From a virus (taxonomy: Duplodnaviria > Caudoviricetes): DNA of 51,456 bases. Of the stretch, positions 12,087-29,210 are shown piece by piece. Each line of letters starts with the position of its first letter. Position 1 is the stretch's first letter. Under the pieces are notes generated by a model. It was given only the letters and a program-made list of their open reading frames with translations, ran no database searches and was not told the origin of the DNA. Position numbers and translations under genes: made by a program. The DNA is taken from positions 1 to 51,456 of the IMG/VR virus record IMGVR_UViG_3300024232_000003; one strand, given 5' to 3'.

Positions 12087-12100
12087 GTTTAACCTCTACT

Positions 12101-12177
12101 TATAATGATGAAGCCGACTGGAGTTACAGGCCAGTCGGCTTCAAACACAACCCGCTTTATGGGAGCGAGTCATGCCT
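12101..12177 (+). promoter_or_regulatory. Endonuclease leader element, copy 1 (-10 box, hairpin, RBS-sequestering stem)
   Basis: TATAAT at 12101; 13-bp stem 12109-12121/12131-12143; AACACAACCCGCTTT and GGAGCGAGTCATGCCT shared with 29131-29210. Confidence 0.75.
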
Positions 12178-12687
12178 GAGTTCGATTCTAGCATCGAGTA
12201 CCGCGACATCGAAGGATTCCCTGGATACAAGGTTGGCAGCGACGGCCATGTGTGGAGTTGTCGCGTATTCAACCGATGGCACAGAACTGGCCCCTGGAAG
12301 CAGTTGCGACCAGGCATCAACAAGATATCTGGGCATCGCATGCTGGTACTCCACCCAGGAAGGCTCTCCATTCAGGTCCACCGCTTGGTAATGAACGCTT
12401 TCAGAGGCCCTTGCCCGGCCGGCCTAGAGGTCTGCCACGGCGACGACGACACGAGCAACAATCAACTATCAAATCTTCGTTACGACACGCATAAAGGAAA
12501 CATGGCTGACGCCTCTCGCAACGGGAGAATGCGTACGAAACTATCCGCGGCACAGGTTGTCGAAATCCGAAGGCGGTATGCTGCAAAGGAAGCCACCCAG
12601 GTTGAGCTTGCCGCCCAATTCAAGGTTCGTCAAAGCACGATCAGCGCCATAGTCCGGTGGAAAATATGGATACACGTCAATCTTTAG
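12172..12687 (+). CDS. NUMOD4-HNH homing endonuclease with C-terminal HTH (antisense insertion)
   Basis: YRDIEGFPGYKVGSDG (NUMOD4); VHRLV..AF.G..VCHGDDDTSNNQLSNL (HNH); KLSAAQVVEIR. Confidence 0.9.
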   Translation: MPEFDSSIEYRDIEGFPGYKVGSDGHVWSCRVFNRWHRTGPWKQLRPGINKISGHRMLVLHPGRLSIQVHRLVMNAFRGPCPAGLEVCHGDDDTSNNQLSNLRYDTHKGNMADASRNGRMRTKLSAAQVVEIRRRYAAKEATQVELAAQFKVRQSTISAIVRWKIWIHVNL

Positions 12688-14008
12688 ATCGCCTGCGTAT
12701 TTTGCCACAAGTCTTTATCAATGCCCGGCACTGCTCGAATCGCCAGGGATTGTCGGACGATACGCCTATGTACAAAACGTGACTGGCGACTCGGATGAAT
12801 TCTGTTGCGTTTCGGCCTCCGGTCCAGGTGCCAGTTAGCCTAGCGCTTTGCGCCAGGGCTTGTTCGGCCGTGGTTCCTGCAAGGACGCTGTAGGTTACTG
12901 ATCCGGAGTCGCTGCCTAAGACTGCCTGCAACTCCTTAATTACGAGCTCATCGAGATTGTCGGTCGAGATCGGGCCAATGATCACCGAAGACTGGATGAT
13001 TCGGCCGTCGTCGTTCGAGGCGTTCTGGTCGAGGTATCTTACTACCCCGTCGAATGAGCCGATCAACTCCACGCGATCCTCGGCCGAATTGCCGTCGAAC
13101 TGGCAGCAGCAAAGCGGGCTATGGTTCGGGTTCGAGAAGACATCTTGGAACCAGCCTCCCGTGCGCTGCTCGTAGAAGTAGTGCGTGGCCGCTCCGGCCG
13201 CCACGGTGGGCGTGATGTAGGCATGAACCCCTTGCTCGCGCTCCGACCAGCACAGGCTCACCGTGTTGGCCCCCGAGTCGACATGATCCAGGAGGTTGTC
13301 GATCTGCTGGCTGATGCGTTGGGGCTGAGAGCCGGGCGCGATGGTGTAAATGCCCATCCGGTTCGACATGAAGTAAACGGTTCCATAAGGGTCGATGCAC
13401 CAGGCCCTTCCCCAAGCCATGCCGATCGAGTTGGAGATCAGGTCGATCGAGCCACCCGCCCTGGGGTCGCCATTGAACAGCCAGAGCGAGTGAGTGCAAC
13501 CGAGGAAGCCGATGTCGTCCGTGAACGGAATGAAGCCCGTCACCATGTCGGCAATCTCGCCTTGCCGGGAAGCGCTTCCCCAGATGGCGTCCGTGGAGCT
13601 TGGACTAAGCGGGGCCAGGTCCATGTTCGTCGGGTCTCCCACAGCGCTCATGAACCAGTTGTAGGGCTGGCCGATGAGGCCGCTCAACCACACCCCGCCT
13701 CGCCAGGTCTCGATGAGCCTTGGGATGTTGCCGGCACCATCAATCGGCATCGTGCCCGCCGAGGCCGTCCAGTCGTCTACTATGCCCGTGGCCGGGTCGA
13801 ACCTCCGATAGTTCACCCCGTCGACGTACCATAGCTCGCCGTTAAGGGCCGTGCCGAAGTTCAGGCGTGAGGCGTCGAATGCGGGCGTTGTGAGGCTGCT
13901 GTTGGTGGCCGCGGTCCATGCTGTCTCGCCGGCATGCGCGTAAAGCAAGTTGCCGTTGGAGACCGCCACGGCCGTTACAACTCTTCCGCTTGTGCTTTGC
14001 TGGACCAT
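12677..14008 (-). CDS. Tail nozzle / tubular protein B-like (beta-propeller), apparently lacking its N-terminus
   Basis: Repeated beta-blade pattern (SAVGDPTNMD, GTVYFMSNRMGIY, RISQQID); position upstream of ejection proteins. Confidence 0.65.
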   Translation of the reverse strand: MVQQSTSGRVVTAVAVSNGNLLYAHAGETAWTAATNSSLTTPAFDASRLNFGTALNGELWYVDGVNYRRFDPATGIVDDWTASAGTMPIDGAGNIPRLIETWRGGVWLSGLIGQPYNWFMSAVGDPTNMDLAPLSPSSTDAIWGSASRQGEIADMVTGFIPFTDDIGFLGCTHSLWLFNGDPRAGGSIDLISNSIGMAWGRAWCIDPYGTVYFMSNRMGIYTIAPGSQPQRISQQIDNLLDHVDSGANTVSLCWSEREQGVHAYITPTVAAGAATHYFYEQRTGGWFQDVFSNPNHSPLCCCQFDGNSAEDRVELIGSFDGVVRYLDQNASNDDGRIIQSSVIIGPISTDNLDELVIKELQAVLGSDSGSVTYSVLAGTTAEQALAQSARLTGTWTGGRNATEFIRVASHVLYIGVSSDNPWRFEQCRALIKTCGKIRRRSKD

Positions 14009-14014
14009 GAGGCC

Positions 14015-14695
14015 TCACGGGGAATAGAAGAGATTGAACGGAAGGATCGCTATGAACGAGCCCGCTACCACGGTCCAGTCGCTTGCCAGAACACTAAAGG
14101 CCGGATTGAAGAAAAGAGCGAACGATTGCGTTACTGTCTGAACCTGCGGATGGCCGACAAAGGCATAAGGCCCAGGGAACCCAGCGCTGACAAAGGTGGC
14201 CGTCAGAGTCACCGTCACCCCGTCCGTCTCGATCTTGAAGTTGGCCGTCCCCTGGCCTGTCCCGCCTCCGTCCGGCGTTCCAACAATCACTCCGGTAATA
14301 CCCGTGAAGGTCGGCTTGTTGCCCTGGAACCATCGCTCGGCAACTTCTACGCGAGGAGCGTTCCGCACGGGCGGGCTGTTGGTCTCCGAATAGTCGAGCC
14401 TGAGCGTCAAGGGAACGAAGGTGTTCTGGAACGTGGCCGCCTGGTCGGCGGTCACTATGCAGCTCAATGACTGAATTTTATTGAAGCCCGAGACCTGCGA
14501 TGTCGAACCTCTGCCGAGGAACGGAGTCAGCCCCTGCCGCGATCCACCCCGGAGCCGATCCGTGGATCCGTCGTAGGCCCGCACGTTGATTGCCGAGGGG
14601 CTCGTGTCGGGCCGCTGGTCGAAGTAGGGCAACGACACGTCCATACCCAGACGGGGAAACTCGATGTTCCTGAAGTTCTCCCGCTTGTCGGGCAT
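14015..14695 (-). CDS. Nozzle N-terminal-like domain plus unique ~150-aa extension
   Basis: First ~85 aa paralogous to 14696..14971 (NVRA.DGST...RGGSRQGLTP.LGRGST.QVSG). Confidence 0.7.
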   Translation of the reverse strand: MPDKRENFRNIEFPRLGMDVSLPYFDQRPDTSPSAINVRAYDGSTDRLRGGSRQGLTPFLGRGSTSQVSGFNKIQSLSCIVTADQAATFQNTFVPLTLRLDYSETNSPPVRNAPRVEVAERWFQGNKPTFTGITGVIVGTPDGGGTGQGTANFKIETDGVTVTLTATFVSAGFPGPYAFVGHPQVQTVTQSFALFFNPAFSVLASDWTVVAGSFIAILPFNLFYSP

Positions 14696-14971
14696 TTAGC
14701 TCTCCGCACTCGCTGAGGCCGTGACGATTACCGAAATGCTTTGAATCAGGTGATACCCGCTCACTTGGGCCGTGCTGCCCCTGCCAAGGATGGGAGTGAG
14801 GCCCTGCCGCGAGCCGCCTCGGGCCTTGTTGGTCGAGCCGTCGAAGGCTCGCACGTTCACGGCCGCTGGCGTCGTGTTGGCCGGCTGCTTCAGGTAGGCC
14901 ATTGACGTGTTGAGGCCCAAAAGTGGAAACCTCATGTCCACGAAAACTTCATCTGTTACTTTCTTGGCCAT
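14696..14971 (-). CDS. Stand-alone nozzle N-terminal-like domain
   Basis: 91 aa; paralog of 14015..14695 N-terminus; same frame as the two downstream ORFs. Confidence 0.7.
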   Translation of the reverse strand: MAKKVTDEVFVDMRFPLLGLNTSMAYLKQPANTTPAAVNVRAFDGSTNKARGGSRQGLTPILGRGSTAQVSGYHLIQSISVIVTASASAES

Positions 14972-14975
14972 GTTC

Positions 14976-15347
14976 TCACCTGCTGAAGATCAGGAACTCG
15001 ACAAGGCAGGCGGTCGTATTGGCCAGGCCGTAAGGGACGCAAGCCGGCAAGAGCGGCCCCAGCATCCACTCGCCGGCGGCCAGCTTCATGAAGTCGGCCC
15101 CGGCAGCGCCATTGCGCAACGTGATGTAGTTGACAACGTCGGAATTGTAGAAGAAGGCCCAGCCGCAACTGGTAATGCCGCCCAGCGGAAAGGCTGTGGC
15201 GCTAGTAGCGATTGATATGACGCCTTCGGAGAAGATGCCCGAGGCGACGGAGACGAGGCCGCCAGTGATGTTCCTGGCGACGGCCGCGGACATGGGGGGA
15301 ATCTTGGAACAGGAGAGGCTCCCGTTCACGGTCAACTCATTGGCCAC
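14976..15347 (-). CDS. Putative virion structural protein
   Basis: MANELTV... beta-rich 123 aa; preceded by the 15-nt start-associated motif. Confidence 0.65.
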   Translation of the reverse strand: MANELTVNGSLSCSKIPPMSAAVARNITGGLVSVASGIFSEGVISIATSATAFPLGGITSCGWAFFYNSDVVNYITLRNGAAGADFMKLAAGEWMLGPLLPACVPYGLANTTACLVEFLIFSR

Positions 15348-15359
15348 GGTCCTTCACTA

Positions 15360-15374
15360 TTCTGCGACGGTCTT
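15360..15374 (-). promoter_or_regulatory. Start-associated motif AAGACCGTCGCAGAA, copy 1
   Basis: Exact copies at 27339-27353 and 31483-31497; 12 nt upstream of GTG 15347. Confidence 0.85.
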
Positions 15375-15398
15375 TGCCTGCTGAACGGAACTCCTCAC

Positions 15399-15407
15399 AG
15401 TCTACCA
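15399..15407 (-). promoter_or_regulatory. Putative extended -10 promoter
   Basis: TGGTAGACT (TGnTAnnnT) directly after a terminator. Confidence 0.45.
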
Positions 15408-15413
15408 CTATTC

Positions 15414-15447
15414 AACGACAAAGCCCCGGAGGAACAACCTCCGGGGC
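15414..15447 (-). terminator. Rho-independent terminator after the lysis/accessory block
   Basis: 10-bp stem GCCCCGGAGG/CCTCCGGGGC followed by TTTGTCGTT on the minus strand. Confidence 0.75.
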
Positions 15448-15475
15448 CCCAGGAGTCTAACACGAACAGAGGAGA

Positions 15476-15757
15476 CTACTTCGCCTTGCCCTTGGCCTTG
15501 GCCAGTTGGGCCGGGGTCGGAGGAGGCGTCGGGGTATTGGCTGCCAAGGCTGCGGCCAGGGCGTCACTCTTCGCCTTCAAGGTCACGCCCAGGTCGGTGA
15601 CAGGCTGAAGCTCTGCGGCTGTGGCGCCGCCTTGGATAGCCGCGTCCACGGCCGTCTTGATGAGGCCCGGAACCGAGCCGATGAATACAGATGCGGCATC
15701 CATCACAGTGTCGGCTGCGGTCATTTCGTCGATAACGGGTTGCAGGTTTGCTGCCAT
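15476..15757 (-). CDS. Ala-rich helical hypothetical protein
   Basis: GGAGAG RBS; clean ORF. Confidence 0.75.
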   Translation of the reverse strand: MAANLQPVIDEMTAADTVMDAASVFIGSVPGLIKTAVDAAIQGGATAAELQPVTDLGVTLKAKSDALAAALAANTPTPPPTPAQLAKAKGKAK

Positions 15758-15789
15758 GAGAACTCTCCTTCATGAAGTGGTGAGACAGG

Positions 15790-15960
15790 CTATGTGCCTG
15801 TTGTTTTACTCGCGTCCAGGGCCGCTTGCAAGGCGTCGGATTTCTCCTTGAGCTTTGCAGCGGCTGCTTCGAGCTTGGCGGGGTCGTCTCGATGCATCAA
15901 CCAAAGAAGGATGAAATGCAACGTCTCCCGGTCCAAGCCGATCGTGATATTGAAGTGCAT
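15790..15960 (-). CDS. Small protein, 56 aa (not in ORF track)
   Basis: MHFNITIGLDRETLHFILLW...LKEKSDALQAALDA; AGGGGG RBS; similar to C-terminus of 15476..15757. Confidence 0.65.
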   Translation of the reverse strand: MHFNITIGLDRETLHFILLWLMHRDDPAKLEAAAAKLKEKSDALQAALDASKTTGT

Positions 15961-15970
15961 TGCAACCCCC

Positions 15971-16336
15971 TTACGTCTGGACTTCAGACAGCATGGCTGC
16001 CACGTCGGGCTCCGTAATGGTTTTGCCGACCTGAAGGAAGGCGTCCTCGATGGCGGCCTTGGGATCCTGGTCGGAGCATTGCTGGTCGATCACTTCCCGG
16101 AGCTGGGCCCTGTGGCCTCTTAGCTGTCGGTTGAACATACGGGTCACCCGCTGAGGCCGATTGGCCAGCGGCAGGCAGGTGAGCAGCATCGGCAACAGCG
16201 TCTTGAACAAAGACATGATCAAGTCGAGGAACGGGTGAGGGCTCGGGGCCGGCGGAGGAACCGGGTCGTCGCCCATCCCCGTGTCACCCCAAACGATGGC
16301 GGCGATCTTGGCGGACTGTTCTTCGATTGCGGACAT
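15971..16336 (-). CDS. Hypothetical protein
   Basis: GGGGA RBS; fills the operon. Confidence 0.7.
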   Translation of the reverse strand: MSAIEEQSAKIAAIVWGDTGMGDDPVPPPAPSPHPFLDLIMSLFKTLLPMLLTCLPLANRPQRVTRMFNRQLRGHRAQLREVIDQQCSDQDPKAAIEDAFLQVGKTITEPDVAAMLSEVQT

Positions 16337-16345
16337 GGTTTCCCC

Positions 16346-16567
16346 TTACCTGGTTAAAAACATCGCGAGTTCAAAAAGAGCCGAGCCCCAGAAGCACACG
16401 TTCGCGGTGATACATCGCTTCTTGGGGCCAGTGAAGCAGAAGGTTAATAGGGCTCCCTCGATCATATGGGAGAACGCCTCGAATGTTCCCGGCCAGCTCA
16501 GGCCGTGCCCTGGCACTGTGAAGCGGCCGACAATCATAAAGGCCGTTGCTGCCAGCATCCAAATCAT
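16346..16567 (-). CDS. Small multi-pass membrane protein
   Basis: Three hydrophobic segments in 73 aa; ATGA coupling. Confidence 0.6.
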   Translation of the reverse strand: MIWMLAATAFMIVGRFTVPGHGLSWPGTFEAFSHMIEGALLTFCFTGPKKRCITANVCFWGSALFELAMFLTR

Positions 16568-16755
16568 GATCTGCCCGCCAGCTGTTCTTCCCAGGTGTCA
16601 ATGATCTCTGGAGTAATGACAGTCCCAGCTTTGATTGTGTAGATCATGTGGCCGGCCAGATCTTCTACCTTGCGAAGGCGGGCGACTTCTCCCTCTATAC
16701 CCTTGAGCAGCAGCTTGAACTCAGGGCTGTCTTCGGGCTTGGTTTCAGGCGTCAT
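16564..16755 (-). CDS. Hypothetical protein
   Basis: ATGA overlap with upstream gene (start 16755). Confidence 0.6.
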   Translation of the reverse strand: MTPETKPEDSPEFKLLLKGIEGEVARLRKVEDLAGHMIYTIKAGTVITPEIIDTWEEQLAGRS

Positions 16756-17321
16756 TGGCCGCACCCGCCCTTTCCGCACCCGCCGCCTTTGTGTCCTCGG
16801 AAGATGCGGCCAAGCACTCTACGGATGGGGCCACTGCGAGCGACTGCACTCACGCTGGAGCCGTCGCCGACGTTGGAACCGTAAAGCGTCATGGGCGGAT
16901 CGGCACAGGCCACAGGCGGAGGAGCGTACTGCATTCTGGCCTTCATCGTGGCCACTTGCTCCGGAGTCATCTTCATCCCGCAACAGGGGCACACATCGCT
17001 CGATGAACTCGGCGGCAGGGTGGCCACAGGCTGCCACATCGCCTCCGGCACAAAACGAGTTCGAGTCACAAAACGAGTAGCCGGGACTACCGGGCAGACT
17101 CCGCCTGGGCAGTTGGATTGAACCCGGAGTTGAGGCAGGAAGTCGCTTTCCTCCGAGCCGCCCGAATGCTTGGGACAACCGAGGCAGGTGCAGTCGGCTC
17201 CGCACGTGCAAGGCTTGCCTTGGCTGCATCCGCAATCATCTTTCAGGGTCGATTGAGGCAGGGCCTCGGCATAAGCCGGGATGCTGATAACAAGGGCGGC
17301 GAGCAGGGCTAAATACTTCAT
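16752..17321 (-). CDS. Secreted Cys-rich protein with metallothionein-like N-terminal cluster
   Basis: Signal peptide MKYLALLAALVISIPAYA; CGCSQGKPCTCGADCTCLGC; CPGGVCP; start 17321 with GGAG RBS. Confidence 0.7.
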   Translation of the reverse strand: MKYLALLAALVISIPAYAEALPQSTLKDDCGCSQGKPCTCGADCTCLGCPKHSGGSEESDFLPQLRVQSNCPGGVCPVVPATRFVTRTRFVPEAMWQPVATLPPSSSSDVCPCCGMKMTPEQVATMKARMQYAPPPVACADPPMTLYGSNVGDGSSVSAVARSGPIRRVLGRIFRGHKGGGCGKGGCGQ

Positions 17322-17366
17322 GATCCACTCCTTTGTAGAGGCACACGGCCTCATTAACTAACGCGG

Positions 17367-17690
17367 TCAGGTTCCAGTAGGACAGTTGGGCACAGAGATC
17401 ATTGTACGCCGTGAGCCAGGTAGCTGAGTCCACCAGGGCCCCGCTCCACACTTCGGGCAGGTATGAGCCTGCCTGTTTCCGAAGCTGCTTTCTCCATGCG
17501 TCCACACGTATCCACAGGCACCGCAACGATGCGAATGCTGGGGCTCACGGGGCCGGCTGGGAACGAACTGGATGATGGGCTGAACGATTACCGGCTTGGG
17601 CTGAAGGGACGACAACGGTGGCAGGGTGCTCTGCGGGAGATCCGCATAGGCCACACCCGCCACCAACAAGAGGACAACTATTCGACACAT
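17367..17690 (-). CDS. Secreted protein with His/Cys zinc-ribbon motif
   Basis: Signal peptide ending AYA; HSHRCGACGYVWTH...AHTCPKCG. Confidence 0.7.
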   Translation of the reverse strand: MCRIVVLLLVAGVAYADLPQSTLPPLSSLQPKPVIVQPIIQFVPSRPREPQHSHRCGACGYVWTHGESSFGNRQAHTCPKCGAGPWWTQLPGSRRTMISVPNCPTGT

Positions 17691-17700
17691 GGGAGCCTCC

Positions 17701-18489
17701 TTAGGCTGCCGAGGGAGTAACGACTCTCGGAACTATCAGTCCGTCTGGAATAGCCTTATTGGCCACCAATAGGCCCGTGCCATTCTCGCTCCAAGAATCT
17801 CCCCAGGAGTTCCAGATCCTGATGGTGAACGGATTGAGTTTCACAAGGTCCATGGCGCAAACACTATGAGACCACCAGTTGTAATCGACAACGCAAGGGA
17901 TGTTCAGCAGAAGGCAGGTCGCGAGTTGGGCTTTGTTCCTGGGCTCGCCGTCCATCCATTCCGTGATCTTGTGCGTGGCTGCCTCCGCCCTCATGGCTGG
18001 AGTATCGTTGCTCCGCGACATGCTCTGCTGAGGCCACGTCTTGGAAGTCGGGCAGCCATTCGCGGCCTGCCATTCGACTCCTTCGGCTCCCCAACCACCC
18101 TCATCCCGATAGCCCTTGATGATGCAGGCTCCGGCATAGGCCGACAGATCAGCGTAGGGCTCATTGTTGACCGCACGGATGAGCAGATGGGCCGACACTC
18201 CCGAATGCTCCCAGCAGTAGCCCTTGCCGTTCTGGTCTCGGCTCGGGATCGGAGCTCCGTTGTTGCCCTTGTTGCGGATATCGGAGAGTTGCATCTTGGA
18301 AGCGATTTGAGCGGCCAGCCGATCAGGCCACTCCGACTCGGGGATCAAGGGCAGGTCGAACGGCTTGGCACACATCAGGTAGCCAATCGGGTATTGAGCA
18401 TAGTCACGCGGGATCAACCCTTTGGCGTGACCCCAGGGCGAGGTCATATGCTCGTGAGCGTTGCCGTCGTGAATAACGATCTCGGCCAT
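17701..18489 (-). CDS. Papain-like (C1 family) cysteine peptidase
   Basis: DQNGKGYCW (oxyanion Gln, catalytic Cys); WWSHSV (His); IWNSWG..W..NG (Asn); start at MAEIV 18489. Confidence 0.85.
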   Translation of the reverse strand: MAEIVIHDGNAHEHMTSPWGHAKGLIPRDYAQYPIGYLMCAKPFDLPLIPESEWPDRLAAQIASKMQLSDIRNKGNNGAPIPSRDQNGKGYCWEHSGVSAHLLIRAVNNEPYADLSAYAGACIIKGYRDEGGWGAEGVEWQAANGCPTSKTWPQQSMSRSNDTPAMRAEAATHKITEWMDGEPRNKAQLATCLLLNIPCVVDYNWWSHSVCAMDLVKLNPFTIRIWNSWGDSWSENGTGLLVANKAIPDGLIVPRVVTPSAA

Positions 18490-18491
18490 GA

Positions 18492-19334
18492 TTAGCCTCC
18501 GAATTTCTTGAGAAGAGTGAGCATGTCGGCCTCGTTCGCCGGCAGGGGCCCCTCGAAGCCCGTCTTGCCGTTGGAGATTATCACCCACGGAACCGCTGTC
18601 CGTGGCCTCGCCATAGCGTCCTGCCAGAGCTTCGACTCATTGGCCGTCGTCACGTCCTTGTCCCAGATCCGCCATTCCTTGGTTTTGCCGTCTGCGCCCA
18701 CAGCGGCCTTGCTGGTCATGTAGTCACGCACCGCAGGGCCGTAGAGGATCGGAAGCTGCTCTTTGGGAAGCTTCGACAGCTCGGCCGTCTCGTACACGAT
18801 CAGCACCCGGAAGCCGTCTACCGGAATCGGAGGCAACGGACCGGGTGGAGGAGGCGGGGGCGGCTTGGGGCCCGGCGGGTCGGGCGGAGGAGGTGGCGGA
18901 GGCGGCTCGCCCGTCGTGATGGCCTGGCGAATGAGCGTGGCCACGTCTGTCGACCGAAAGATCAGCAATTCGCACGAGCCGGGATTGGCCGCCGTGACGA
19001 TGTAGACGTTGGGCTGCTTGTAATTCCTCAGTTCCGGCTTGCCGTCCTTCGAGTCGCTGAAGACTCCCCACATCGTTATGGGGCCTGGCGCCGCAACGAC
19101 GTTCACGAAGCCCAGAGGTGACGAGGTGACGCCCACGGGGCCGGTTGAAGGAATGACGTAGAGAACGCCAGGCTTGAGAAGGAACGCTGTGCCTGGTGTT
19201 GGTACAGGAACGGGCGGGGCAGGAGGATTGGGCAGAGTGACGACGGGAAGCTTGGGAGGAGGTGGAACAACCGTTTGTCCCCAAGCCGAGCCGACTAAGG
19301 CGCTGGCTAGGAACAATGAAAATAGATACCTCAT
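18492..19334 (-). CDS. Secreted Pro-rich protein with C-terminal globular (thioredoxin-like?) domain
   Basis: Signal peptide; poly-Pro linker; RVLIVYE...VPWVIISNG...GPLP domain. Confidence 0.7.
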   Translation of the reverse strand: MRYLFSLFLASALVGSAWGQTVVPPPPKLPVVTLPNPPAPPVPVPTPGTAFLLKPGVLYVIPSTGPVGVTSSPLGFVNVVAAPGPITMWGVFSDSKDGKPELRNYKQPNVYIVTAANPGSCELLIFRSTDVATLIRQAITTGEPPPPPPPPDPPGPKPPPPPPPGPLPPIPVDGFRVLIVYETAELSKLPKEQLPILYGPAVRDYMTSKAAVGADGKTKEWRIWDKDVTTANESKLWQDAMARPRTAVPWVIISNGKTGFEGPLPANEADMLTLLKKFGG

Positions 19335-19335
19335 T

Positions 19336-19405
19336 TCGACCTTTCAGTTAGAGATCCGGGCGAGCCAGCCGGGAAAGGTCGAGTAAACCAACCGACCCGC
19401 CCGGA
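19336..19405 (-). promoter_or_regulatory. Putative RBS-sequestering RNA pseudoknot/switch
   Basis: Crossing stems 19336-45/19373-82 and 19355-62/19398-405. Confidence 0.55.
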
Positions 19406-19411
19406 CCAGGT

Positions 19412-20235: not shown

Positions 20236-20236
20236 G

Positions 20237-20677: not shown

Positions 20678-20702
20678 CACGGGTTCCTCAGTGTTCGGGT
20701 CT

Positions 20703-21127: not shown

Positions 21128-21175
21128 TCTGGCCTCCTTTTGAATGAACTGAAACGGGGGTTTCAGTTGAGCGGA

Positions 21176-21826: not shown

Positions 21827-21875
21827 TTTGAACTCCTTTGGCCGCGGGCGCGCCCTTGGCCGTTAACGATGCACG

Positions 21876-22406: not shown

Positions 22407-22425
22407 CGCCTAACCTCTTATAAGA

Positions 22426-22484
22426 CACCCTCCCGTACTCGCTTCTGCGAAGACCGTCGCATAGAACACGAAGCCGGGAGGGTG
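22426..22484 (-). ncRNA. Structured intergenic RNA carrying the antisense copy of the start-associated motif
   Basis: 10-bp closing stem CACCCTCCCG/CGGGAGGGTG; inner GCTTC/GAAGC and TGCGA/TCGCA stems; contains GTGTTCT-A-TGCGACGGTCTT. Confidence 0.6.
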
Positions 22485-22495
22485 ATTCCGTTGTT

Positions 22496-23290
22496 TCACT
22501 CGAATGGCTGGCCGTTGTAGGTCAACTGGCCACGATTCCAGTAGCCGTGACGGTTCCAGCGGCCCCCTCGCTGGGCATTGCCGTTGTAACCGAGTTTCTG
22601 GGGCCGGTTCTTGTTGTCGGCACTCACAGCGCCCAGGAGCATCATCTGGAATTTCATGGTGTGCGGCCCGTCCATCGTGTCGTCGAATCGCTGCTCCGCG
22701 ATCGACAGGCAGCTTTCGATATACAACTCGCGGTACTGGGGGCCACCGTAACAGTAAGGGGTAGCACCCGTGATTCGATCCGGATTGATCGAGTAGACGC
22801 AGCGGATGTCATAGGCCGCGTCTGACGTCGGGAAGATCACCAGGCTCTTGCGCTGGCCCACGGGGGCGTTGATGTCTCGGAGCGGGGCCTCGCAGGCGTA
22901 CAAGGGTGGCCCGGTTCGGCTTGGTTCGAGCTGCTGCATCTGCTGGATCTTGCCGAGGTTGATCCACTCGATCAGCCACGGGGCCGAGACGCTCGTGCTC
23001 GATACGACCGTTAGCGGGCCGACGAAACTACCGAAATCATCCGGCAAGCGAATCGAACTGGCCCCTGAGTCGAGGTGAATCGTCGACTGTGGCTTGAGGA
23101 AGGTCCAGTCGGGAGCGATCTTCTCGCCGTTTACTGGGGGCGGGAAATAAACTTGCGCGATGCCCGAAGTGGTCACGTCGTTTATGACATACAACTGGTT
23201 GTCATTCCATCCAGCAGGGTCGCGCCCGTAACCCTGCTGGACGGCAATGATGGAACGAAGCTCGTCAAAAGTCACTGCAAAGGAGGACAT
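22496..23290 (-). CDS. Head-tail adaptor / tail tubular protein A-like
   Basis: W.FL...LPDDF...GPP..Y...IFPTSDAAY pattern typical of podoviral adaptors. Confidence 0.7.
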   Translation of the reverse strand: MSSFAVTFDELRSIIAVQQGYGRDPAGWNDNQLYVINDVTTSGIAQVYFPPPVNGEKIAPDWTFLKPQSTIHLDSGASSIRLPDDFGSFVGPLTVVSSTSVSAPWLIEWINLGKIQQMQQLEPSRTGPPLYACEAPLRDINAPVGQRKSLVIFPTSDAAYDIRCVYSINPDRITGATPYCYGGPQYRELYIESCLSIAEQRFDDTMDGPHTMKFQMMLLGAVSADNKNRPQKLGYNGNAQRGGRWNRHGYWNRGQLTYNGQPFE

Positions 23291-23348
23291 TAGGCTGCTT
23301 TCTTACAGGTGCATTTGGTCTTGCCGCACTTCGGACACTTCTTGGCTT

Positions 23349-23480
23349 TCATTTCTTGCCTTTCTTCTGTTTGACTCGGGCGGGGAGCTTACCCTTGTTG
23401 TTGAAGTGGTGAGCCTCCGCGAACTTCTTGCCCTTGGTCGCGTAGATAAACGCGCGCTGGGCCTGACTCTTGGTCGGCAT
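23349..23480 (-). CDS. Small basic protein (MPxKSxAQ family)
   Basis: MPTKSQAQRAF...KGKLPARVK; AGGAG RBS. Confidence 0.65.
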   Translation of the reverse strand: MPTKSQAQRAFIYATKGKKFAEAHHFNNKGKLPARVKQKKGKK

Positions 23481-23482
23481 GG

Positions 23483-23794
23483 CTACTCCTTGTGATGGCT
23501 CCTCTTCTTCTTTTCCGGTGGAGCATCGGGGCAGATGCACGGATCTTCCCCGCACACTTCACACTTCTCCGTTGGAGGCGGAGCATCCTCATAGTGGGCC
23601 GGGCAGCACTCATCGGCCTGCTTGAGGACGGCGTGTTCGTGGAAGGTTTGCGTTCCGTCTGGCTCGAAGGCCACCAGGTTGACAATGCCGTCGCCAAACG
23701 ATTTGACGACGATGCATGGTTGACTCTCCGGGTAAGGAACTTCGTCCGAGCCCGGAGGAGTATAAGTCGAGAGGCCGAGGTGAGTCTTCTGCAT
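23483..23794 (-). CDS. Hypothetical protein
   Basis: PCIVVK..VNLVAF motif; C-terminal CEVC..CIC; AAGGA RBS. Confidence 0.65.
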   Translation of the reverse strand: MQKTHLGLSTYTPPGSDEVPYPESQPCIVVKSFGDGIVNLVAFEPDGTQTFHEHAVLKQADECCPAHYEDAPPPTEKCEVCGEDPCICPDAPPEKKKRSHHKE

Positions 23795-23854
23795 GATTGA
23801 TTCCTTGAATCGATAAGGCAGGTGATACCCCGGTATCACCTGGAATTGTGTGGC

Positions 23855-24844
23855 TTACGAGTTTCCAAGCTGGGCGATGCGAATCCAATCCGCAGCCAGG
23901 TAATCGCTCGACTGCGAGGCCATGTTCATGACCGAGAGGACCGGGGACATGAAGGCGGTCGGGAATGCCTGGGTGGCCGTGGCATTCACCACGTCGTCCG
24001 TGCTCAGCCAGGTGCTCATTACCTCGACGCTATTGACGAAGAACCGGATGATCTTGCGACGAGTGTTGCCCGTTGTCTGCCGAGCGGTCGGGGCCGAGCC
24101 GATCAGAGTAGGCAACCCCTGGGGGTCGAAGATCCATCCCAGCTTCACGTAAGCATCGGCCGCCAACACCGTCTGGCCGGCCGCTGCCATCAGGGTCGTG
24201 AGGTTGGTTGGGTAATTGATCGTACCCGAGGCCAGGCAGAACGAGACGCCGACTTCCGTGGGGCCGCCGCGCGTGGAAGTCGTGCCGGCCAGGTTGAAGC
24301 CAAAGGTGTCTCCGGCGGTCATGAGCGTGTCGTCGGTCGTCGTCCAGGGCTGGGCCGCCGCGGGGAGACCGGAGGCCAGGGTCGGAGCCATCAGGCCCAC
24401 GAAGACCGAGGTGTGGGCCGTGGCGATGCTGCTCTTGGCGATGCGGGCCTCGAACCACATCTTCTGGTTCAGGGCCAGAGTGGAGGTCGTGAGGAAGCGA
24501 AAGCCGGCCGCGGACGAAAGCAGCGTGAGGCCTTCGTTGTCGCCGTCAGCAGACATCTTGATGACGCCGCCTTCTTTCTGGCCGTCGTTGATCTGGGTGC
24601 CTGCGTACCCATATGTCGACCACTGCCCGATCGAGCCCGCATAAGCGGAACTCATCGTGGCGTTGCCGATCATGTTGAAGTCGTCGAAGAACCAGGCCCC
24701 GTCTACCGAGCCTTCCTGCATGGCCTCCCAGGGGCAATCGCCCCAGATGGAGTACGACGGGAGCCGGTAATTCCCCAGCGCTACCCCGCCCGAGAAGGCC
24801 GAGGCGGGGTTGTTGGCCAGGTACTGTGGATGTTTTGCTGCCAT
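23855..24844 (-). CDS. Putative capsid-associated (decoration/minor head) protein
   Basis: FFDDF...WFEARI...YVKLGW..D...FFVN...DWIRIAQ beta-sandwich; downstream of MCP; high GC3. Confidence 0.6.
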   Translation of the reverse strand: MAAKHPQYLANNPASAFSGGVALGNYRLPSYSIWGDCPWEAMQEGSVDGAWFFDDFNMIGNATMSSAYAGSIGQWSTYGYAGTQINDGQKEGGVIKMSADGDNEGLTLLSSAAGFRFLTTSTLALNQKMWFEARIAKSSIATAHTSVFVGLMAPTLASGLPAAAQPWTTTDDTLMTAGDTFGFNLAGTTSTRGGPTEVGVSFCLASGTINYPTNLTTLMAAAGQTVLAADAYVKLGWIFDPQGLPTLIGSAPTARQTTGNTRRKIIRFFVNSVEVMSTWLSTDDVVNATATQAFPTAFMSPVLSVMNMASQSSDYLAADWIRIAQLGNS

Positions 24845-24907
24845 TTGCTTTCCTTCCGCCTCGGCGGGTTAGGGGTTGAACTCTTGGCCTTTAGGCCACG
24901 TTTTTGT

Positions 24908-25363
24908 TCAGGACGCCTCTACTTCTTCTTGCTTCCGCTTGGGCCGGGCCTTGATGGGCTTCACTGGGGCCGGAACTAACTCAGGGACTCGCTTGCTGGG
25001 ATTCTTGTTGTAGACCCGCCACGAGAACCACTTCCAGTGATCGTGGGTCTGGCCGCTCTGGTAATCCTTCTGAGGAGTCAATGGATTCACCAGCTTGTCG
25101 CCCTTGTCTTCCTGCACGTACTCCCGCAACTTTCCGTTTACGCGCAGGAAGCCGGTCTCGACTTCTTCGATCTCCCCGGTGTCGGGGTTTTTGCGACGAC
25201 GGGTGGCCGCTTCGATCGGCTCCAACACCTTGCGTTCATTCGGCCTCAAGGGGTCCACCGTGCAGAACCCCACCATATGAACGCACATCCCCAGCTCGTC
25301 CAGCTCATCGTCGGAGCAGCCGAAGGGGCAGAAGTTTTCTACTTCCTCTTTTACGTCAGGCAC
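24908..25363 (-). CDS. Hypothetical protein
   Basis: AGGAG RBS; CPFGC...CVH. Confidence 0.7.
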   Translation of the reverse strand: MPDVKEEVENFCPFGCSDDELDELGMCVHMVGFCTVDPLRPNERKVLEPIEAATRRRKNPDTGEIEEVETGFLRVNGKLREYVQEDKGDKLVNPLTPQKDYQSGQTHDHWKWFSWRVYNKNPSKRVPELVPAPVKPIKARPKRKQEEVEAS

Positions 25364-25374
25364 GGTCTAACTCC

Positions 25375-25611
25375 TTAGCTTGCCAATTTGACAGGGATAT
25401 CCAGGTACTCCCCGATGATGGTCGCAATGCTGTTCGCGTCGGCCTTGTACGATTCAGACGAAAGAATCTTCTGCGCCCATCCATAGTCGGCCACGACTGA
25501 GAACAGTCTCGTTTTGCTTTCAGGCTCGGCTGTGTCGTGGACCATCAGAGCCTTCGGCAAGGAGTCGTTCAAAACGAAATGAGAAAACGTCTTCGTATGC
25601 GTACAAGTCAT
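25375..25611 (-). CDS. Hypothetical protein
   Basis: AGGAG RBS. Confidence 0.6.
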   Translation of the reverse strand: MTCTHTKTFSHFVLNDSLPKALMVHDTAEPESKTRLFSVVADYGWAQKILSSESYKADANSIATIIGEYLDIPVKLAS

Positions 25612-25621
25612 GTCGGACTCC

Positions 25622-25696
25622 TACAATGAAACGAGCACGCGGCGGCTGTTACCCGCCCGTGCCCCGGCACTACTCAGATTGGAGACAAAGCAGTGC
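25622..25696 (+). promoter_or_regulatory. Endonuclease leader element, divergent copy
   Basis: TACAATGA; hairpin 25635-25662; second stem GCACT/AGTGC enclosing GGAG and covering the GTG start. Confidence 0.55.
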
Positions 25697-26280
25697 AACA
25701 CAATTCTACTGATCTTTTCGGCAACCTTCCTTTGCAACAGTGCATGTTGTGCAAAGAGCGCAAACCAATCGACGACTACCCGATGGGCAAAGTCCGTCGC
25801 GTTCGCAACTGCTCGGCCTGCCGATCCAGAACAGAAAAGGCCTGCACGAAATGCAAACGAGTGCAGCCTATGGAAGATTTTCCCTGGAACACTCCAGCCA
25901 AAAATAATCCGTGCTATCCAAAGAAGTATCGAGGATCCCATTGCAACACTTGTGGTGCAGAACACACTAGGGCGTGGGGCCTGAGGGTTGGCAAGGCCCG
26001 CGTCAGACAAATGAACAGGCAAAAGCTCTATGGGATTACCTTGGATCAATACCGGGAAATGGAGTTGGCTCAGGACGGTCGGTGCCTGATCTGCGGAACC
26101 AACGAATTCCCTATCGACAAGCGAAGCAAAATACCGAGACAGCTTGAGGTCGATCACTGCCACAAGACTGGCAAGATTCGCGGACTGCTTTGCCATCGTT
26201 GCAACAATGGCCTTGGCTGTTTCAGTGATGACCCCAAACTCCTTCAAGCTGCAATCTCCTATCTACGTAAGTCGTTGTAA
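25693..26280 (+). CDS. Endonuclease VII-family homing endonuclease (antisense insertion)
   Basis: YGITLDQY..QDGRCLICG...LEVDHCHKTGKIRGLLCHRCNNGLG; N-terminal CxxC repeats. Confidence 0.9.
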   Translation: MQHNSTDLFGNLPLQQCMLCKERKPIDDYPMGKVRRVRNCSACRSRTEKACTKCKRVQPMEDFPWNTPAKNNPCYPKKYRGSHCNTCGAEHTRAWGLRVGKARVRQMNRQKLYGITLDQYREMELAQDGRCLICGTNEFPIDKRSKIPRQLEVDHCHKTGKIRGLLCHRCNNGLGCFSDDPKLLQAAISYLRKSL

Positions 26281-27327
26281 TCAGCTGGGATAGGTCGTCC
26301 CGTTCGATGCGCAAAAGTGTGGACGCCTATTTCGGGTATAAGGGGTCCACATGCAGTCCGTAAACCCTAGCGAAACATTGTGACTGCTTGGCGAGTAAGG
26401 AATGATCGTCTCGCGCATCCACTCTCCGCGGGCGATGGCAATCCAGAACCATCCGAGGTCGAGGCCGTAGAAAGGATTCGTGGTGTCGGCATCGAGGAAT
26501 GGCACGTACTTGACGCCGATCCCGCGAAACATAGGGTCGCCGCCATCCATGCTGGCGACGTCACGACCAAGATTGTCATTCTGCGACTCCATGCTTTCTT
26601 GCAGGGCCTGCCGCACTGCGTAGTTGGAGTAGTAGCGTGGCTTATACCCGTTGTTCGGGCTCGGGATGCCCTTGACCTGGGGCTTGAAATTGCACTTCTC
26701 TGCGGCCTCGCGGATCTGACGGATGAAATCATCGCGTGAAATCGCTGTGTAAGGCGCACACCAGTTCTGCCACCTGGGGTAGGTCGTCGAGCTGATGTTC
26801 GCAATGGCCGTGTAGCCAGTGAGCATGCCCGAGGTGAAGCCCTTGGTGGCGCCCTTGGTGACCCAGTAGGGCAGGCCGAAGGGAACCTTGAGGTCGGTGG
26901 CCGAGGGCGGCATCCAGAAGTTGCGCTCAAAGAGGTTCGCCAGGCTGATCTGCGCCATGATGCGCTGCTGCTTGACGAAATCGACGATGAGGGCCGGTTC
27001 TCGATTCATCGACACGAGTTGATGAATGAGCATCCAGCTCGTTTGCGTGTTGCGGAAGTTGATGCGGCCCTGGATCATGCCGTCCGTTTCGGTCACGTTG
27101 TCCGGCTCGGCCAGGCCCACGTTGCGCGCGGCCGTGCTCTGGTTGACCAGGGCGTTGAACTGCATGCCCACGCCGGAGCCGATCGTCACCCGATCTTCCA
27201 CCAGAAGCTCATCCATGACGACGAGCTGCTGGAGGTCGCTCGAAATGTCGGTCCAGTCCGGCTTGCCGAGGTCGTAGAGTGTGTCCGCTACGAAGTCGGC
27301 CACATTTTCCATCTGGATTACAGGCAC
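26281..27327 (-). CDS. Major capsid protein
   Basis: 348 aa after scaffold; strong GC3 bias; HK97-fold-like pattern (PFGLPYW, WQNW, FRGIGVKYVP). Confidence 0.75.
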   Translation of the reverse strand: MPVIQMENVADFVADTLYDLGKPDWTDISSDLQQLVVMDELLVEDRVTIGSGVGMQFNALVNQSTAARNVGLAEPDNVTETDGMIQGRINFRNTQTSWMLIHQLVSMNREPALIVDFVKQQRIMAQISLANLFERNFWMPPSATDLKVPFGLPYWVTKGATKGFTSGMLTGYTAIANISSTTYPRWQNWCAPYTAISRDDFIRQIREAAEKCNFKPQVKGIPSPNNGYKPRYYSNYAVRQALQESMESQNDNLGRDVASMDGGDPMFRGIGVKYVPFLDADTTNPFYGLDLGWFWIAIARGEWMRETIIPYSPSSHNVSLGFTDCMWTPYTRNRRPHFCASNGTTYPS

Positions 27328-27338
27328 TTCAAAACGCT

Positions 27339-27353
27339 TTCTGCGACGGTCTT
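27339..27353 (-). promoter_or_regulatory. Start-associated motif AAGACCGTCGCAGAA, copy 2
   Basis: 11 nt upstream of MCP GTG; no clear Shine-Dalgarno in between. Confidence 0.85.
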
Positions 27354-28317
27354 AGGATCGTTTGAAAGTATTACGCAGGTCTTGATCTTCTTTGGCCGTG
27401 GACGGGTTGACTGCCACGCCGTTCTCGCGAGCCCGGCGTTCAGCGTTCTTGATGGCGCGCTCGCGACCGAAGGGCTCCTGGTCGCTCTCGCGTTGCGTTG
27501 GGACCGCGGTTCCGCCGGCTTCCCACTCTTCGCGGGTGTAGCGGCCACGGCGTTGCGGACGTTCTACTGAAACGGGGGTTTCAGTTGACTTCTTCTCGAT
27601 CTTGAAAAGCTCGTCGGCCTTAGCCTTGAGCTTCGAGAGAAGTTGTTTTCCGGAGGTCACGCGGGCGTCGAGGCCGGTCTCCTGAAGCACCACCATGCGC
27701 CTGCGGAAGGTGGCCGGGTCGGAGGCCTTGAGGTCGTCGCCGGATCCGGCACCGAAGTAAGCCGCGTACTCCGGCCCCAGAGCCTCAAAGGCGTCGTCGA
27801 TCATCGACTTGGCCTGAGCGATGGAGCGTTCCTGATCGCGCGCTTTGGTTTGGGCCAACTCTTCACGGAGTTCCTTGAGGGCCTTGGCGTTCTCGGCGTC
27901 ACGAGTCTTGAGCTTGTTGAAGGCCCCGACGATCTTCTCGTCGTACTCTTCCGGCTTGAGGCCGAGATCGAGTTCCGGCTCGGGTTCAGGGGCCTTGGCT
28001 GGTGTCTGGGTGGACTGGAGGCGTTCACGCCACTCGTTGTCGCGGCGTTGGGCCTGCGTGAGGGCGATTCCGAGCGAGTCTGTCGTCATCTTGGCGCAGT
28101 CGGCCTCGGTGAAGCCGTAGTTCCTGGCCATTTCGAGGAGATAAGAAGGGTGAGCCGGCGGAGTGGATGAGTTCTTCGCCGGCTCGGGGGGTGTGACTTC
28201 CTTGAAAGTGCCGTCAGGATTGCGTTCCCGGGGCCTGGGAATGCCGTCCGGCTGGGACATATCGAGGTCGGTGTTGCCCAAATTCCTATTGGGAACTTCC
28301 GGTGTAGGCTCTGCCAA
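27352..28317 (-). CDS. Capsid scaffolding protein
   Basis: Acidic/coiled-coil; RERNPDGTF motif; between portal and MCP. Confidence 0.7.
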   Translation of the reverse strand: MAEPTPEVPNRNLGNTDLDMSQPDGIPRPRERNPDGTFKEVTPPEPAKNSSTPPAHPSYLLEMARNYGFTEADCAKMTTDSLGIALTQAQRRDNEWRERLQSTQTPAKAPEPEPELDLGLKPEEYDEKIVGAFNKLKTRDAENAKALKELREELAQTKARDQERSIAQAKSMIDDAFEALGPEYAAYFGAGSGDDLKASDPATFRRRMVVLQETGLDARVTSGKQLLSKLKAKADELFKIEKKSTETPVSVERPQRRGRYTREEWEAGGTAVPTQRESDQEPFGRERAIKNAERRARENGVAVNPSTAKEDQDLRNTFKRS

Positions 28318-28361
28318 TGCACATCACGTCTTCCCGCGTGGTCTTCGCTGAAGTGATGTTA

Positions 28362-28390
28362 AGCTTACGTCGATATGGAGATAGTGTCAA
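28362..28390 (-). promoter_or_regulatory. sigma70-like promoter for scaffold/capsid genes
   Basis: TTGACA (28390-28385), 17-nt spacer, TAAGCT (28367-28362). Confidence 0.65.
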
Positions 28391-28410
28391 AGAATCAACG
28401 ATTTGGGGCC

Positions 28411-28477
28411 AACTGCTACCCCGGTAGCAGTTCAACTGCGTACCGGTACGCAGTTCGACTGGACAGGGTGTCCAGTC
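28411..28477. repeat. Three tandem RACTG...CAGTY palindromes
   Basis: 28411-28432, 28434-28455 and 28457-28477, each separated by a single C. Confidence 0.85.
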
Positions 28478-28479
28478 CG

Positions 28480-28863
28480 TCAGATTCGAGGCCGTTTCTT
28501 GGGCGGTTCGGGCGGCAAAGCAGCCCCTCTTCCGCTCCAATTCTCGTCTCGATTCACGTATCCAGTGGCCTGGCAATATTGCCTCTGATGCTCCCGGCTC
28601 TTCCAGATGATTGAGCCGTCTGGAGCGAAGTCGGTCGGCACTCCGATGGCTGTGGCCGCAGCGCGAGCCTCTTCGACCTGGCTTGGGTGGACTCCGAGCG
28701 AGTCGGCTGCGTAGGGATAACTCGAAGCCTTGGCTCCCATTGGAGGCCCGGAGCCGGCCACGGGCAGAGGATGGCGTTCCCGGTAGGTGACCTCGTCTAC
28801 TTCGAGGTTGTCTAGGAAGTAGTGAGCCTCTTTGCCAAGCTCGATTCGGTCAGGCGTCTTCAC
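28480..28863 (-). CDS. Hypothetical protein between portal and scaffold
   Basis: LGVHPSQV...GVPTDF..DG; GTGA coupling. Confidence 0.7.
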   Translation of the reverse strand: MKTPDRIELGKEAHYFLDNLEVDEVTYRERHPLPVAGSGPPMGAKASSYPYAADSLGVHPSQVEEARAAATAIGVPTDFAPDGSIIWKSREHQRQYCQATGYVNRDENWSGRGAALPPEPPKKRPRI

Positions 28864-29117
28864 GTCGCGTCTCCGTATGCCTCGGCAATCTTATTCTTCA
28901 CCAGCTTATCGAACGCCTCGCCTTCGAGCCGCCTGATGTCTGACAGTTCCACTGGGAACTGGATGGCCAGGCCCCTCGCTATGATGCAGACGAGGGCCGG
29001 GCCTCGGCTCAAGTGTTGCATCGTCACGTTCACGGAATCAACGTCTCCGACGACGCGCTCCAGGCATTCGGCCAGTTTCTTCTCGCAGCCTGAACTACTG
29101 CCGGTTGTGACTTTCAT
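28860..29117 (-). CDS. Hypothetical protein
   Basis: AGGAGG RBS. Confidence 0.65.
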   Translation of the reverse strand: MKVTTGSSSGCEKKLAECLERVVGDVDSVNVTMQHLSRGPALVCIIARGLAIQFPVELSDIRRLEGEAFDKLVKNKIAEAYGDAT

Positions 29118-29130
29118 TGTGTCCTCCTTC

Positions 29131-29210
29131 TACAATGACGAAAGGCCGGCGTGTTGAAGCACGGCGGCCTCTCTCAACACAACCCGCTTTCTGAGGAGCG
29201 AGTCATGCCT
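29131..29210 (+). promoter_or_regulatory. Endonuclease leader element, copy 2
   Basis: TACAATGA; hairpin 29143-29170; 15-nt and 16-nt blocks identical to 12144-12158 and 12162-12177. Confidence 0.75.

Follow-up and report, generated by a model that had tools for sequence, protein, structure and literature searches.

Three plus-strand nuclease genes and their leaders

The window analysed here is the entire IMG/VR virus record IMGVR_UViG_3300024232_000003 (51,456 bp, 59% GC, with a 126-nt terminal repeat), a sequence present in five soil metagenome DNA runs, with no RNA run listed among those that contain it. Nearly all of its long open reading frames (ORFs) lie on the minus strand, and its minus-strand structural genes are broken up by three plus-strand nuclease genes, each preceded by a short leader, which is the element considered in this work. 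We propose, with a probability of roughly 0.6, that promoters facing each other across this leader would yield the nuclease mRNA and a cis-antisense RNA of about 65-75 nt predicted to mask the Shine-Dalgarno sequence (SD) and AUG of the nuclease. The three genes, which contain nuclease domains of homing-endonuclease families (PF13392, PF02945 and phrog_3377), are the following:

12172..12687, plus strand: HNH_3 homing-endonuclease gene, 171 aa (PF13392, E = 6.8e-13; phrog_59, phrog_1492)
25693..26280, plus strand: Endonuclease VII-type (EndoVII) gene, 195 aa, GTG start (PF02945, E = 1e-22)
29205..29669, plus strand: HNH endonuclease gene of the phrog_3377/374 type, 154 aa (phrog_3377, E = 8.7e-54; no Pfam family)

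An earlier reading made from the letters of the window (the sequence-only reading) had described all three as antisense to the phage genes, which was confirmed. It had also assigned a NUMOD4 domain to the 12172 protein; this domain scored below threshold and only HNH_3 reached it.

In the leaders of the two HNH genes, the -10 box regions (TATAATGATGAA at 12101-12112 and TACAATGACGAA at 29131-29142) are followed by a GC-rich hairpin (12109-12143 and 29143-29170), entirely different in sequence and alike in shape. Then comes AACACAACCCGCTTT, a 15-mer found exactly at 12144-12158 and 29176-29190 and with no other exact copy in the record, and finally GGAGCGAGTCATGCCT, 16 nt running through the ribosome-binding site (RBS), the ATG and codon 2, which is exact at 12162-12177 and 29195-29210. 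The identity of the two leaders stops directly after ATGCCT, and the proteins encoded beyond this point belong to different families (HNH_3, PF13392, and phrog_3377). The EndoVII leader has the same layout in another sequence, with TACAATGA at 25622, a hairpin at 25635-25662 and then a stem over the SD and the start codon. The shared leader ahead of dissimilar HNH proteins, with its hairpin and its two identical blocks, and the related architecture of the EndoVII gene had both been put forward by the sequence-only reading, and both stand. The motif TAYAATGA occurs four times in the window against 0.61 expected, three of these copies preceding the nuclease genes, and a sigma-70-type scan of positions 11000-30500 returned only four promoter-like sites, of which two are those of the HNH leaders.

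The likeness of the leaders could in principle come from recent copying, or from gene conversion, inside this genome. The blocks are 100% identical in the window, and a 62-nt repeat of 82% identity between two HNH_3 genes suggests that such exchange occurs. However, the hairpin that lies between the identical blocks is wholly different, and the unit also occurs in about 18 contigs from elsewhere, where nucleases and GC contents differ, so that we regard simple duplication as hardly credible.

The conserved blocks form a helix on the antisense strand

The two conserved blocks pair with each other as a 13-bp helix, which on the minus strand reads GGCAUGACUCGCU/AGCGGGUUGUGUU and covers, in complement, the start codon, codon 2 and part of the SD. 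Five G-U pairs of the minus-strand helix become A-C mismatches on the sense strand. Among 14 aligned copies from the window and from external contigs, 98.3% of the helix cells hold standard pairs on the antisense strand compared with 66.3% on the sense strand, and five helix pairs change on both sides (16 cells); the model-made alignment A5 was left out of these counts because it misplaced divergent inner stems. When the partner was slid by one to three columns as a control, pairing fell to 38-49%. The mean energy of the helix is -13.3 kcal/mol antisense and -6.4 kcal/mol sense, and the antisense helix is the better one in all 14 copies. The four copies that came from the last scan (L286, L287, L289 and L296), which were not chosen on pairing, form full antisense helices of -13.3 to -17.3 kcal/mol, compared with -1.1 to -12.4 kcal/mol on the sense strand, the widest disparity being that of L287 (-13.3 against -1.1 kcal/mol).

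The helix also leaves its mark on the proteins. Codon 2 is CCN or UCN, encoding Pro or Ser, in 12 of the 14 copies (12175-12177 and 29208-29210 in the window, together with external copies), because this codon forms part of the RNA helix. An x-Ser-Thr sequence at codons 5-7, which encodes a backward TAGAAT, is common to several unrelated nucleases. The first seven or so codons of the nuclease seem to be part of the cassette rather than of the enzyme.

The same symmetry could be a property of the DNA, as a protein operator, a recombination site or a recognition site of the nuclease, in which case the helix would be a mere palindrome. The very high conservation of AACACAA...TCATG across phages would suit such an element. 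The inner arms, by contrast, vary and yet stay complementary (CCCGC/GCGAG, TTAGA/TCTAA, GCACC/GGCGC, CAATC/GACTG), the symmetry needs G-U pairs, which are meaningful in RNA and not in duplex DNA, and the flanks of the insertion sites differ. We consider a DNA-level element very improbable.

Two facing -10 boxes and a GC hairpin

On the antisense strand, 12 of the 14 copies have, 4-8 nt upstream of the helix, a hexamer matching TATAAT at four or more of six positions, against a background of 13% (binomial p = 2e-9), and five or more positions match in 5 of the 14 against 2.2%. None of the search patterns behind the 14 copies required this box. The boxes sit in nuclease codons 3-7, pointing backwards, and read TAGAAT in the window HNH_3 copy, in L014, L016 and L041, as they do in the EndoVII leader and in that of its orthologue. 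A sense-strand hexamer with five or more of six matches stands 2-11 nt before the hairpin in 12 of the 14 copies against a background of 5.4%, in agreement with the promoter that the sequence-only reading had placed there. The GC hairpin itself (9-13 bp, -16 to -26 kcal/mol, of unrelated sequences) lies 0-3 nt after the helix on the minus strand in all 14 copies, and the predicted antisense RNA measures 61-70 nt to the end of this hairpin. A consensus terminator scan listed none of the three window hairpins. The corresponding features of the window are listed below, cassettes 1, 2 and 3 being those of the genes at 12172, 29205 and 25693, respectively.

12078..12106, plus strand: sense promoter-like site of cassette 1, TTGGCT-17-TATAAT (10/12 matches in the scan; its -10 ends 5 nt before the hairpin)
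12109..12143, minus strand: GC hairpin of cassette 1, read as the terminator-like 3' hairpin of the predicted antisense RNA (13-bp stem in folds of both strands, -17 kcal/mol)
12144..12176, minus strand: conserved 13-bp helix and 7-nt loop of cassette 1, GGCAUGACUCGCU/AGCGGGUUGUGUU (R1 leader model, 55.4 bits; -15.1 kcal/mol antisense against -6.8 sense)
12185..12190, minus strand: antisense -10 box of cassette 1, TAGAAT preceded by TGc, in HNH codons 5-7 and 7 nt before the predicted RNA start near 12177
29107..29136, plus strand: sense promoter-like site of cassette 2, GTGACT-18-TACAAT (9/12 matches in the promoter scan)
29137..29210, minus strand: predicted antisense RNA of cassette 2, about 74 nt, with 5' helix at 29176-29209 and GC hairpin at 29143-29170 (R1 model, 53.1 bits; folds)
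29218..29223, minus strand: antisense -10-like box of cassette 2, TAACAT, in HNH codons 5-7 and 7 nt before 29210
25622..25627, plus strand: sense -10 box of cassette 3, TACAAT (sequence)
25630..25695, minus strand: predicted antisense RNA of cassette 3, of a second sequence type, with 5' stem CACUGCU/AGUAGUG (25668-25695), CUCC in the loop and then the GC hairpin at 25635-25662
25703..25708, minus strand: antisense -10 box of cassette 3, TAGAAT, in EndoVII codons 4-6 and 7 nt before the CAC that complements the GTG start

In cassette 1, the helix region contains the anti-start codon and the anti-SD CUCC, and the GC hairpin, placed after this 5' domain on the minus strand, is on the complementary strand the 5' hairpin of the sense mRNA. 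Cassette 3 was not detected by the R1 model, and a scan for further EndoVII-type leaders returned only the contig, already known, of the EndoVII orthologue L174. This orthologue, 43% identical in protein sequence, keeps the stem with compensatory changes (CACUGCGAU/AUCGUGGUG) and has TAGAAT at the same place, which gives further weight to the architecture described for the EndoVII gene.

A different reading of such a leader is that it acts on the sense strand only. In the T-even phages, the genes of I-TevI and of related homing endonucleases carry an mRNA hairpin that hides the SD and the AUG, and a late promoter bypasses it. The leaders described here could likewise consist of a promoter, a stabilising 5' hairpin and an RBS-hiding hairpin, with no antisense RNA; the sequence-only reading had proposed such an RBS-hiding pairing. 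The position of the sense -10 boxes and the promoter-like sites at 12078-12106 and 29107-29136 are consistent with this explanation, as is the fact that the sense strand also forms the inner 4-6 helix pairs, the minimum-energy fold of the 29205 leader having them over the SD. Both systems would share a tight post-transcriptional restraint of a phage homing endonuclease by pairing over SD and AUG, whereas the helix conserved here is on the opposite strand. On the sense strand, three of the helix pairs are standard in none or one of the 14 copies and one more in five, and the helix, already far weaker in pairing and energy, is missing from the centroid structure of the 12172 leader. Nor would a sense-only leader explain why -10 boxes are kept inside unrelated ORFs. 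We therefore did not retain the sense hairpin as the main structure, and judge a leader without antisense RNA quite unlikely.

The leader recurs in front of at least five nuclease families

The leader unit precedes about 18 further genes, nearly all of them nuclease genes, in viral and metagenome contigs with a GC content at the locus of 0.33-0.65. Scans of such contigs with exact patterns returned the unit in L003, L004, L006, L012, L014 and L016, in each case in the order of a hairpin of differing sequence, AACACAACCCGCTTT, 2-4 nt, GGAGCGAG and the start codon; L005, L010 and L015 were discarded as chance pattern matches. A second pattern, in which five inner stem positions on each side were left free, gave at least 148 distinct candidates, a scan of bacterial genomes included. 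The inner pairs were complete (5/5) in 12 of them, 10 of which also had a strong upstream hairpin, and these ten are all from viral or metagenome contigs. The freed-stem scans added L020, L021, L035, L038, L041 and L042, and most of L018-L047 were discarded as chance matches. In bacterial genome contigs, the strict pattern had no match, and the relaxed one matched at least 120 stretches, with none among the matches listed having a full inner helix and a strong hairpin. L278 was added by a model search of the records of relatives and the divergent L245 from loci of nuclease homologues. A last pattern, which left the inner 19-25 nt free and required the backward TAGAAT, added L286, L287 (in five contigs), L289 and L296; L288, L292, L297 and L293 came from the same scan and were left out, having no hairpin. 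Positions 29171-29209 of the window are moreover present with foreign flanks in a 243-nt contig of run X1. The recurrence of the blocks in the same order and spacing in unrelated contigs is, on these scans, more than chance would give. The ORFs that follow the leader, with W1 and W2 denoting the two window HNH copies, are:

HNH_3: W1, L278, L014, L016, L021, L041, L287, L289
phrog_3377/374 HNH: W2, L003, L245, L286
EndoVII: L004
GIY-YIG with NUMOD3: L020 and L042; L038 is a truncated remnant of 8 codons
MUG113/T5orf172: L006
No family assigned: L012, L296, L035

At least five nuclease families (HNH_3, phrog_3377-type HNH, EndoVII, GIY-YIG/NUMOD3 and T5orf172) are thus found behind the leader. 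When the R1 leader model was run on 100 loci of the closest viral relatives of two of the window nucleases, none scored significantly, the best scores being those of the divergent L245/L247 (16.1 bits). Since no homologue locus scores significantly, the leader was not inherited with one nuclease lineage. The sequence-only reading had supposed a portable module that is not confined to one endonuclease lineage, and this tabulation of the downstream families bears it out.

The AT-rich viral contig L042 also carries, at 155-356 on the plus strand and about 640 nt from its GIY-YIG cassette (996-1034), a permuted transfer-messenger RNA (tmRNA) gene (RF04321, 89 bits; alpha_tmRNA, 52 bits). Its presence may point to a host among the alphaproteobacteria, or else the nuclease may have inserted next to a tmRNA gene of the phage.

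Empty sites indicate that leader and nuclease arrived together

Three relatives, G001, G002 and G005, encode capsid, portal and 443-aa proteins 47-52% identical to those of the window phage. At the 12172 site, G001 is empty, as its two backbone genes share an ATGA overlap that leaves no room for a hairpin, and G005 is occupied by an orthologous HNH_3 gene with the cassette (L041); in G002, an HNH_3 cassette flanks this backbone gene on its opposite side. The 29205 site is empty in both G001 and G005, where the portal stop overlaps the next start. The EndoVII site is empty in G005, where 18 nt separate the capsid gene from the one that follows, and in G001 the site has the orthologous EndoVII gene (L174). 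At the empty sites of these relatives, the backbone genes overlap or lie 18 nt apart, without any hairpin. Since the relatives have abutting backbone genes at the same sites, the promoter, the hairpin and the leader arrived with the nuclease, and nuclease and leader are, on this comparison, one mobile cassette. The flanking insertion sites differ, and the unit is kept both against the direction of the neighbouring genes (window, L041, L174) and along it (L003, L004). In a contig of run X2, the stretch 29119-29838, comprising the leader, the HNH gene and the 3' end of the portal gene, is replaced by 435 other letters, forming an alternative allele.

In a contig of run X4, positions 25331-25616 are replaced by 38 other letters, the shorter side of the joint being only 35 nt. 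The 78-aa ORF 25375-25611, which adjoins the EndoVII cassette and lies within the replaced stretch, also varies between strains.

The position of the cassettes raises another explanation, in which the minus-strand element mainly restarts transcription and translation of the backbone gene cut off by the insertion (the 321-aa, 85-aa and 78-aa genes), encodes no separate repressor RNA, and affects the nuclease at most secondarily. All three window cassettes split formerly coupled genes with the inner promoter aimed at the downstream gene, the RBS of which starts 10-15 nt after the hairpin, and the hairpin tails make poor U-tracts. This explanation meets three difficulties. The unit is kept in the co-oriented L003 and L004, where the inner promoter faces the end of the upstream gene. 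The helix is made from the complement of the SD, the AUG and codon 2 of the nuclease, which would be needless in the leader of another gene. Finally, all 14 copies have a stable hairpin immediately behind the helix, which would suit a stop signal. We hold restarting of the backbone gene as the main role to be rather unlikely, although it could coexist with antisense repression.

Comparison with SymR and other antisense systems

At gathering thresholds, a search of the whole window against Rfam returned no family. Below threshold, the Rfam model of SymR (RF01809) aligned end to end (1-77) to positions 29210-29137 on the minus strand with 41.4 bits (E = 4e-8 for the record; gathering cut-off 61). 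The supposition of the sequence-only reading that the leader matches no described Rfam family is thus only half sustained, as one window copy is matched by SymR, at a score under the cut-off. Conversely, the best match of the R1 model on a 14-kb E. coli locus was the SymR 5' domain, in register and short of significance (10.7 bits, E = 2.1). SymR of E. coli is described as a 77-nt cis-antisense RNA that controls symE (Kawano, Aravind and Storz 2007, PMC1891008). At the E. coli K-12 locus, TAGAAT is followed after 7 nt by the start of symR, which lies 3 nt within symE, and the RNA has a two-part fold with a U-poor end; the same two-part fold, a 5' stem-loop with anti-start codon and anti-SD followed by a GC hairpin, is found in the phage copies.

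The likeness extends to several features. SymR is, and the phage RNA is predicted to be, a short cis-antisense RNA (77 nt in E. coli and about 65-75 nt here) with a promoter (TAGAAT and 7 nt) inside the target ORF and a start about 3 nt past the start codon. In both, a long 5' stem-loop, in which CUCC is present, pairs CAU with GUG in UUGUG, the GC hairpin that comes next lacks a good U-tract, and the -10 box of the target lies just beyond this hairpin. By contrast, the phage targets are HNH_3, EndoVII, GIY-YIG, T5orf172 and phrog_3377 proteins and not the AbrB-fold SymE, and the phage unit resides on mobile cassettes whereas SymR lies in a chromosomal restriction island. No LexA box was noticed by eye in the phage units, no formal search having been made. 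Only two of the phage copies examined score with the SymR model, that at 29205 and L006 (29.7 bits), both below the cut-off. The phage unit probably works like SymR, and we do not file it as a member of that family.

The plasmid antisense RNA PtaRNA1/XCV2162 (RF01811) gave weak full-length minus-strand alignments at both window HNH leaders (13.9 and 17.6 bits; cut-off 47). PtaRNA1 shares with the phage units the CAUG, the anti-SD stem, the UUGUGU followed by a GC hairpin, and horizontal mobility. The PtaRNA1 target is described as a small predicted membrane toxin (PMC5367252), unlike the nucleases found here. CfrI of cyanophage S-PM2 is reported to overlap a homing endonuclease gene and to link psbA to it (PMC12197685). 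In searches of the literature outside subscription journals, no description of an antisense RNA cassette on phage homing endonucleases was found, CfrI being the nearest case. CfrI is longer than the RNA predicted here. In sar/ant of P22 and RNA-OUT/RNA-IN of IS10, a small antisense RNA made from a promoter in or next to its target covers the translation start. To our knowledge, neither these systems nor CfrI has been described as a portable cassette common to several nuclease families.

A proposed antisense control of the nuclease

The features above suggest the following mechanism. Each plus-strand nuclease gene belongs to a self-contained mobile cassette of about 0.6 kb inserted between tightly coupled structural genes, and in its 5' control unit of about 90 bp two promoters would stand face to face. 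The sense promoter (-10 TAYAAT or TAGAAT) would start the nuclease mRNA at the GC hairpin, and the -10 box on the opposite strand, within nuclease codons 3-6, would start an RNA of about 65-75 nt some 3 nt inside the ORF. This RNA is predicted to open with the 13-bp stem-loop, with the anti-start codon in the stem and the anti-SD in or next to the loop, and to end at the GC hairpin. Since this RNA is complementary to the entire 5' leader of the nuclease mRNA, the two would pair, probably by an initial loop-loop contact, and pairing would block ribosome binding and/or trigger cleavage of the duplex, so that a potentially harmful nuclease is kept low, as SymR controls symE. What we infer from these features is the existence of the antisense RNA, its 3' end and its repressing effect on translation.

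Several points weigh against this mechanism. The RNA is a prediction, all the evidence being comparative sequence analysis. As to the pairing counts, 4 of the 14 aligned copies were chosen for complementary inner five pairs, the search patterns had imposed the outer pairs, and the copies are related, so that the counts do not represent independent events. No clear -35 element was seen for the antisense promoters. Termination is not assured, because the hairpin tails are moderately U-rich (1-6 U in 10) and overlap the complement of the sense -10 box; in the window, where it is co-directional with the phage operon, the antisense RNA could be no more than the first part of a longer transcript. 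L035, which is followed by an unknown ORF of 69 aa and has a weak helix and no -10 boxes, may fall outside the family. As to SymR, its model gives no match with E up to 10 at the 12172 leader, nor at 14 further loci, 13 of which are members; kinship is unproven, as the scores lie below the cut-off and the R1 model in turn matches SymR weakly (10.7 bits).

Phage genomes are rich in homing endonucleases, and only for a few T4-type cases is it known how the carrier stays unharmed. If the mechanism holds, a portable antisense unit serving at least five nuclease families would be a general answer to the restraint of these enzymes, would account for the backward insertion of nuclease genes into essential operons, and would broaden SymR-like type I control beyond one enterobacterial toxin, to the mobile nucleases of soil and other phages. 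The covariance model would serve as an annotation marker for cassette boundaries, and the unit could provide synthetic circuits with a compact two-promoter switch of about 90 bp. A more speculative extension, which we regard as doubtful, is that these cassettes, SymR/symE and the plasmid-borne PtaRNA1 form one ancient superfamily of portable sense/antisense brake units hopping between genes of toxic proteins. As a rule, free-standing homing endonucleases of many families, across phages, would then carry such an RNA along, in the manner of type I toxin-antitoxin systems, and the chromosomal symER would descend from a mobile-nuclease cassette.

Other features of the window

Matches to known phage families are few among the window proteins and include the large terminase (31496-33436), a helicase and an exonuclease. 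A megablast search of window positions 11000-31000 against the phage collection gave no match, and a search of viral contigs with the portal protein returned no relative; the relatives were found through the leader matches and a genome search.

A fourth nuclease gene, at 47090-47620 on the minus strand and co-directional with the phage genes, encodes an HNH_3 protein (PF13392, E = 1.3e-12) 41% identical to the 12172 protein. The R1 model search of the window found no R1-type leader at this gene, which has no obvious start codon just after the stop of the upstream gene for a helix-turn-helix protein (47617-48489). The 62-nt inverted repeat mentioned above, 82% alike, joins 12194-12255 and 47546-47607 within the two HNH_3 genes and, being far above the overall protein identity, may be a gene-conversion tract.

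A promoter-like site at 20169-20198 on the plus strand (CTGACA-18-TAAAAT, 10/12 matches) precedes the plus-strand ORFs 20202-20411 and 20496-21143, neither of which has a family match; together they could be a further inserted unit. Finally, a 94-nt direct repeat, 73% alike, at 10444-10537 and 10777-10870 lies in a 669-aa gene and is an internal protein repeat.

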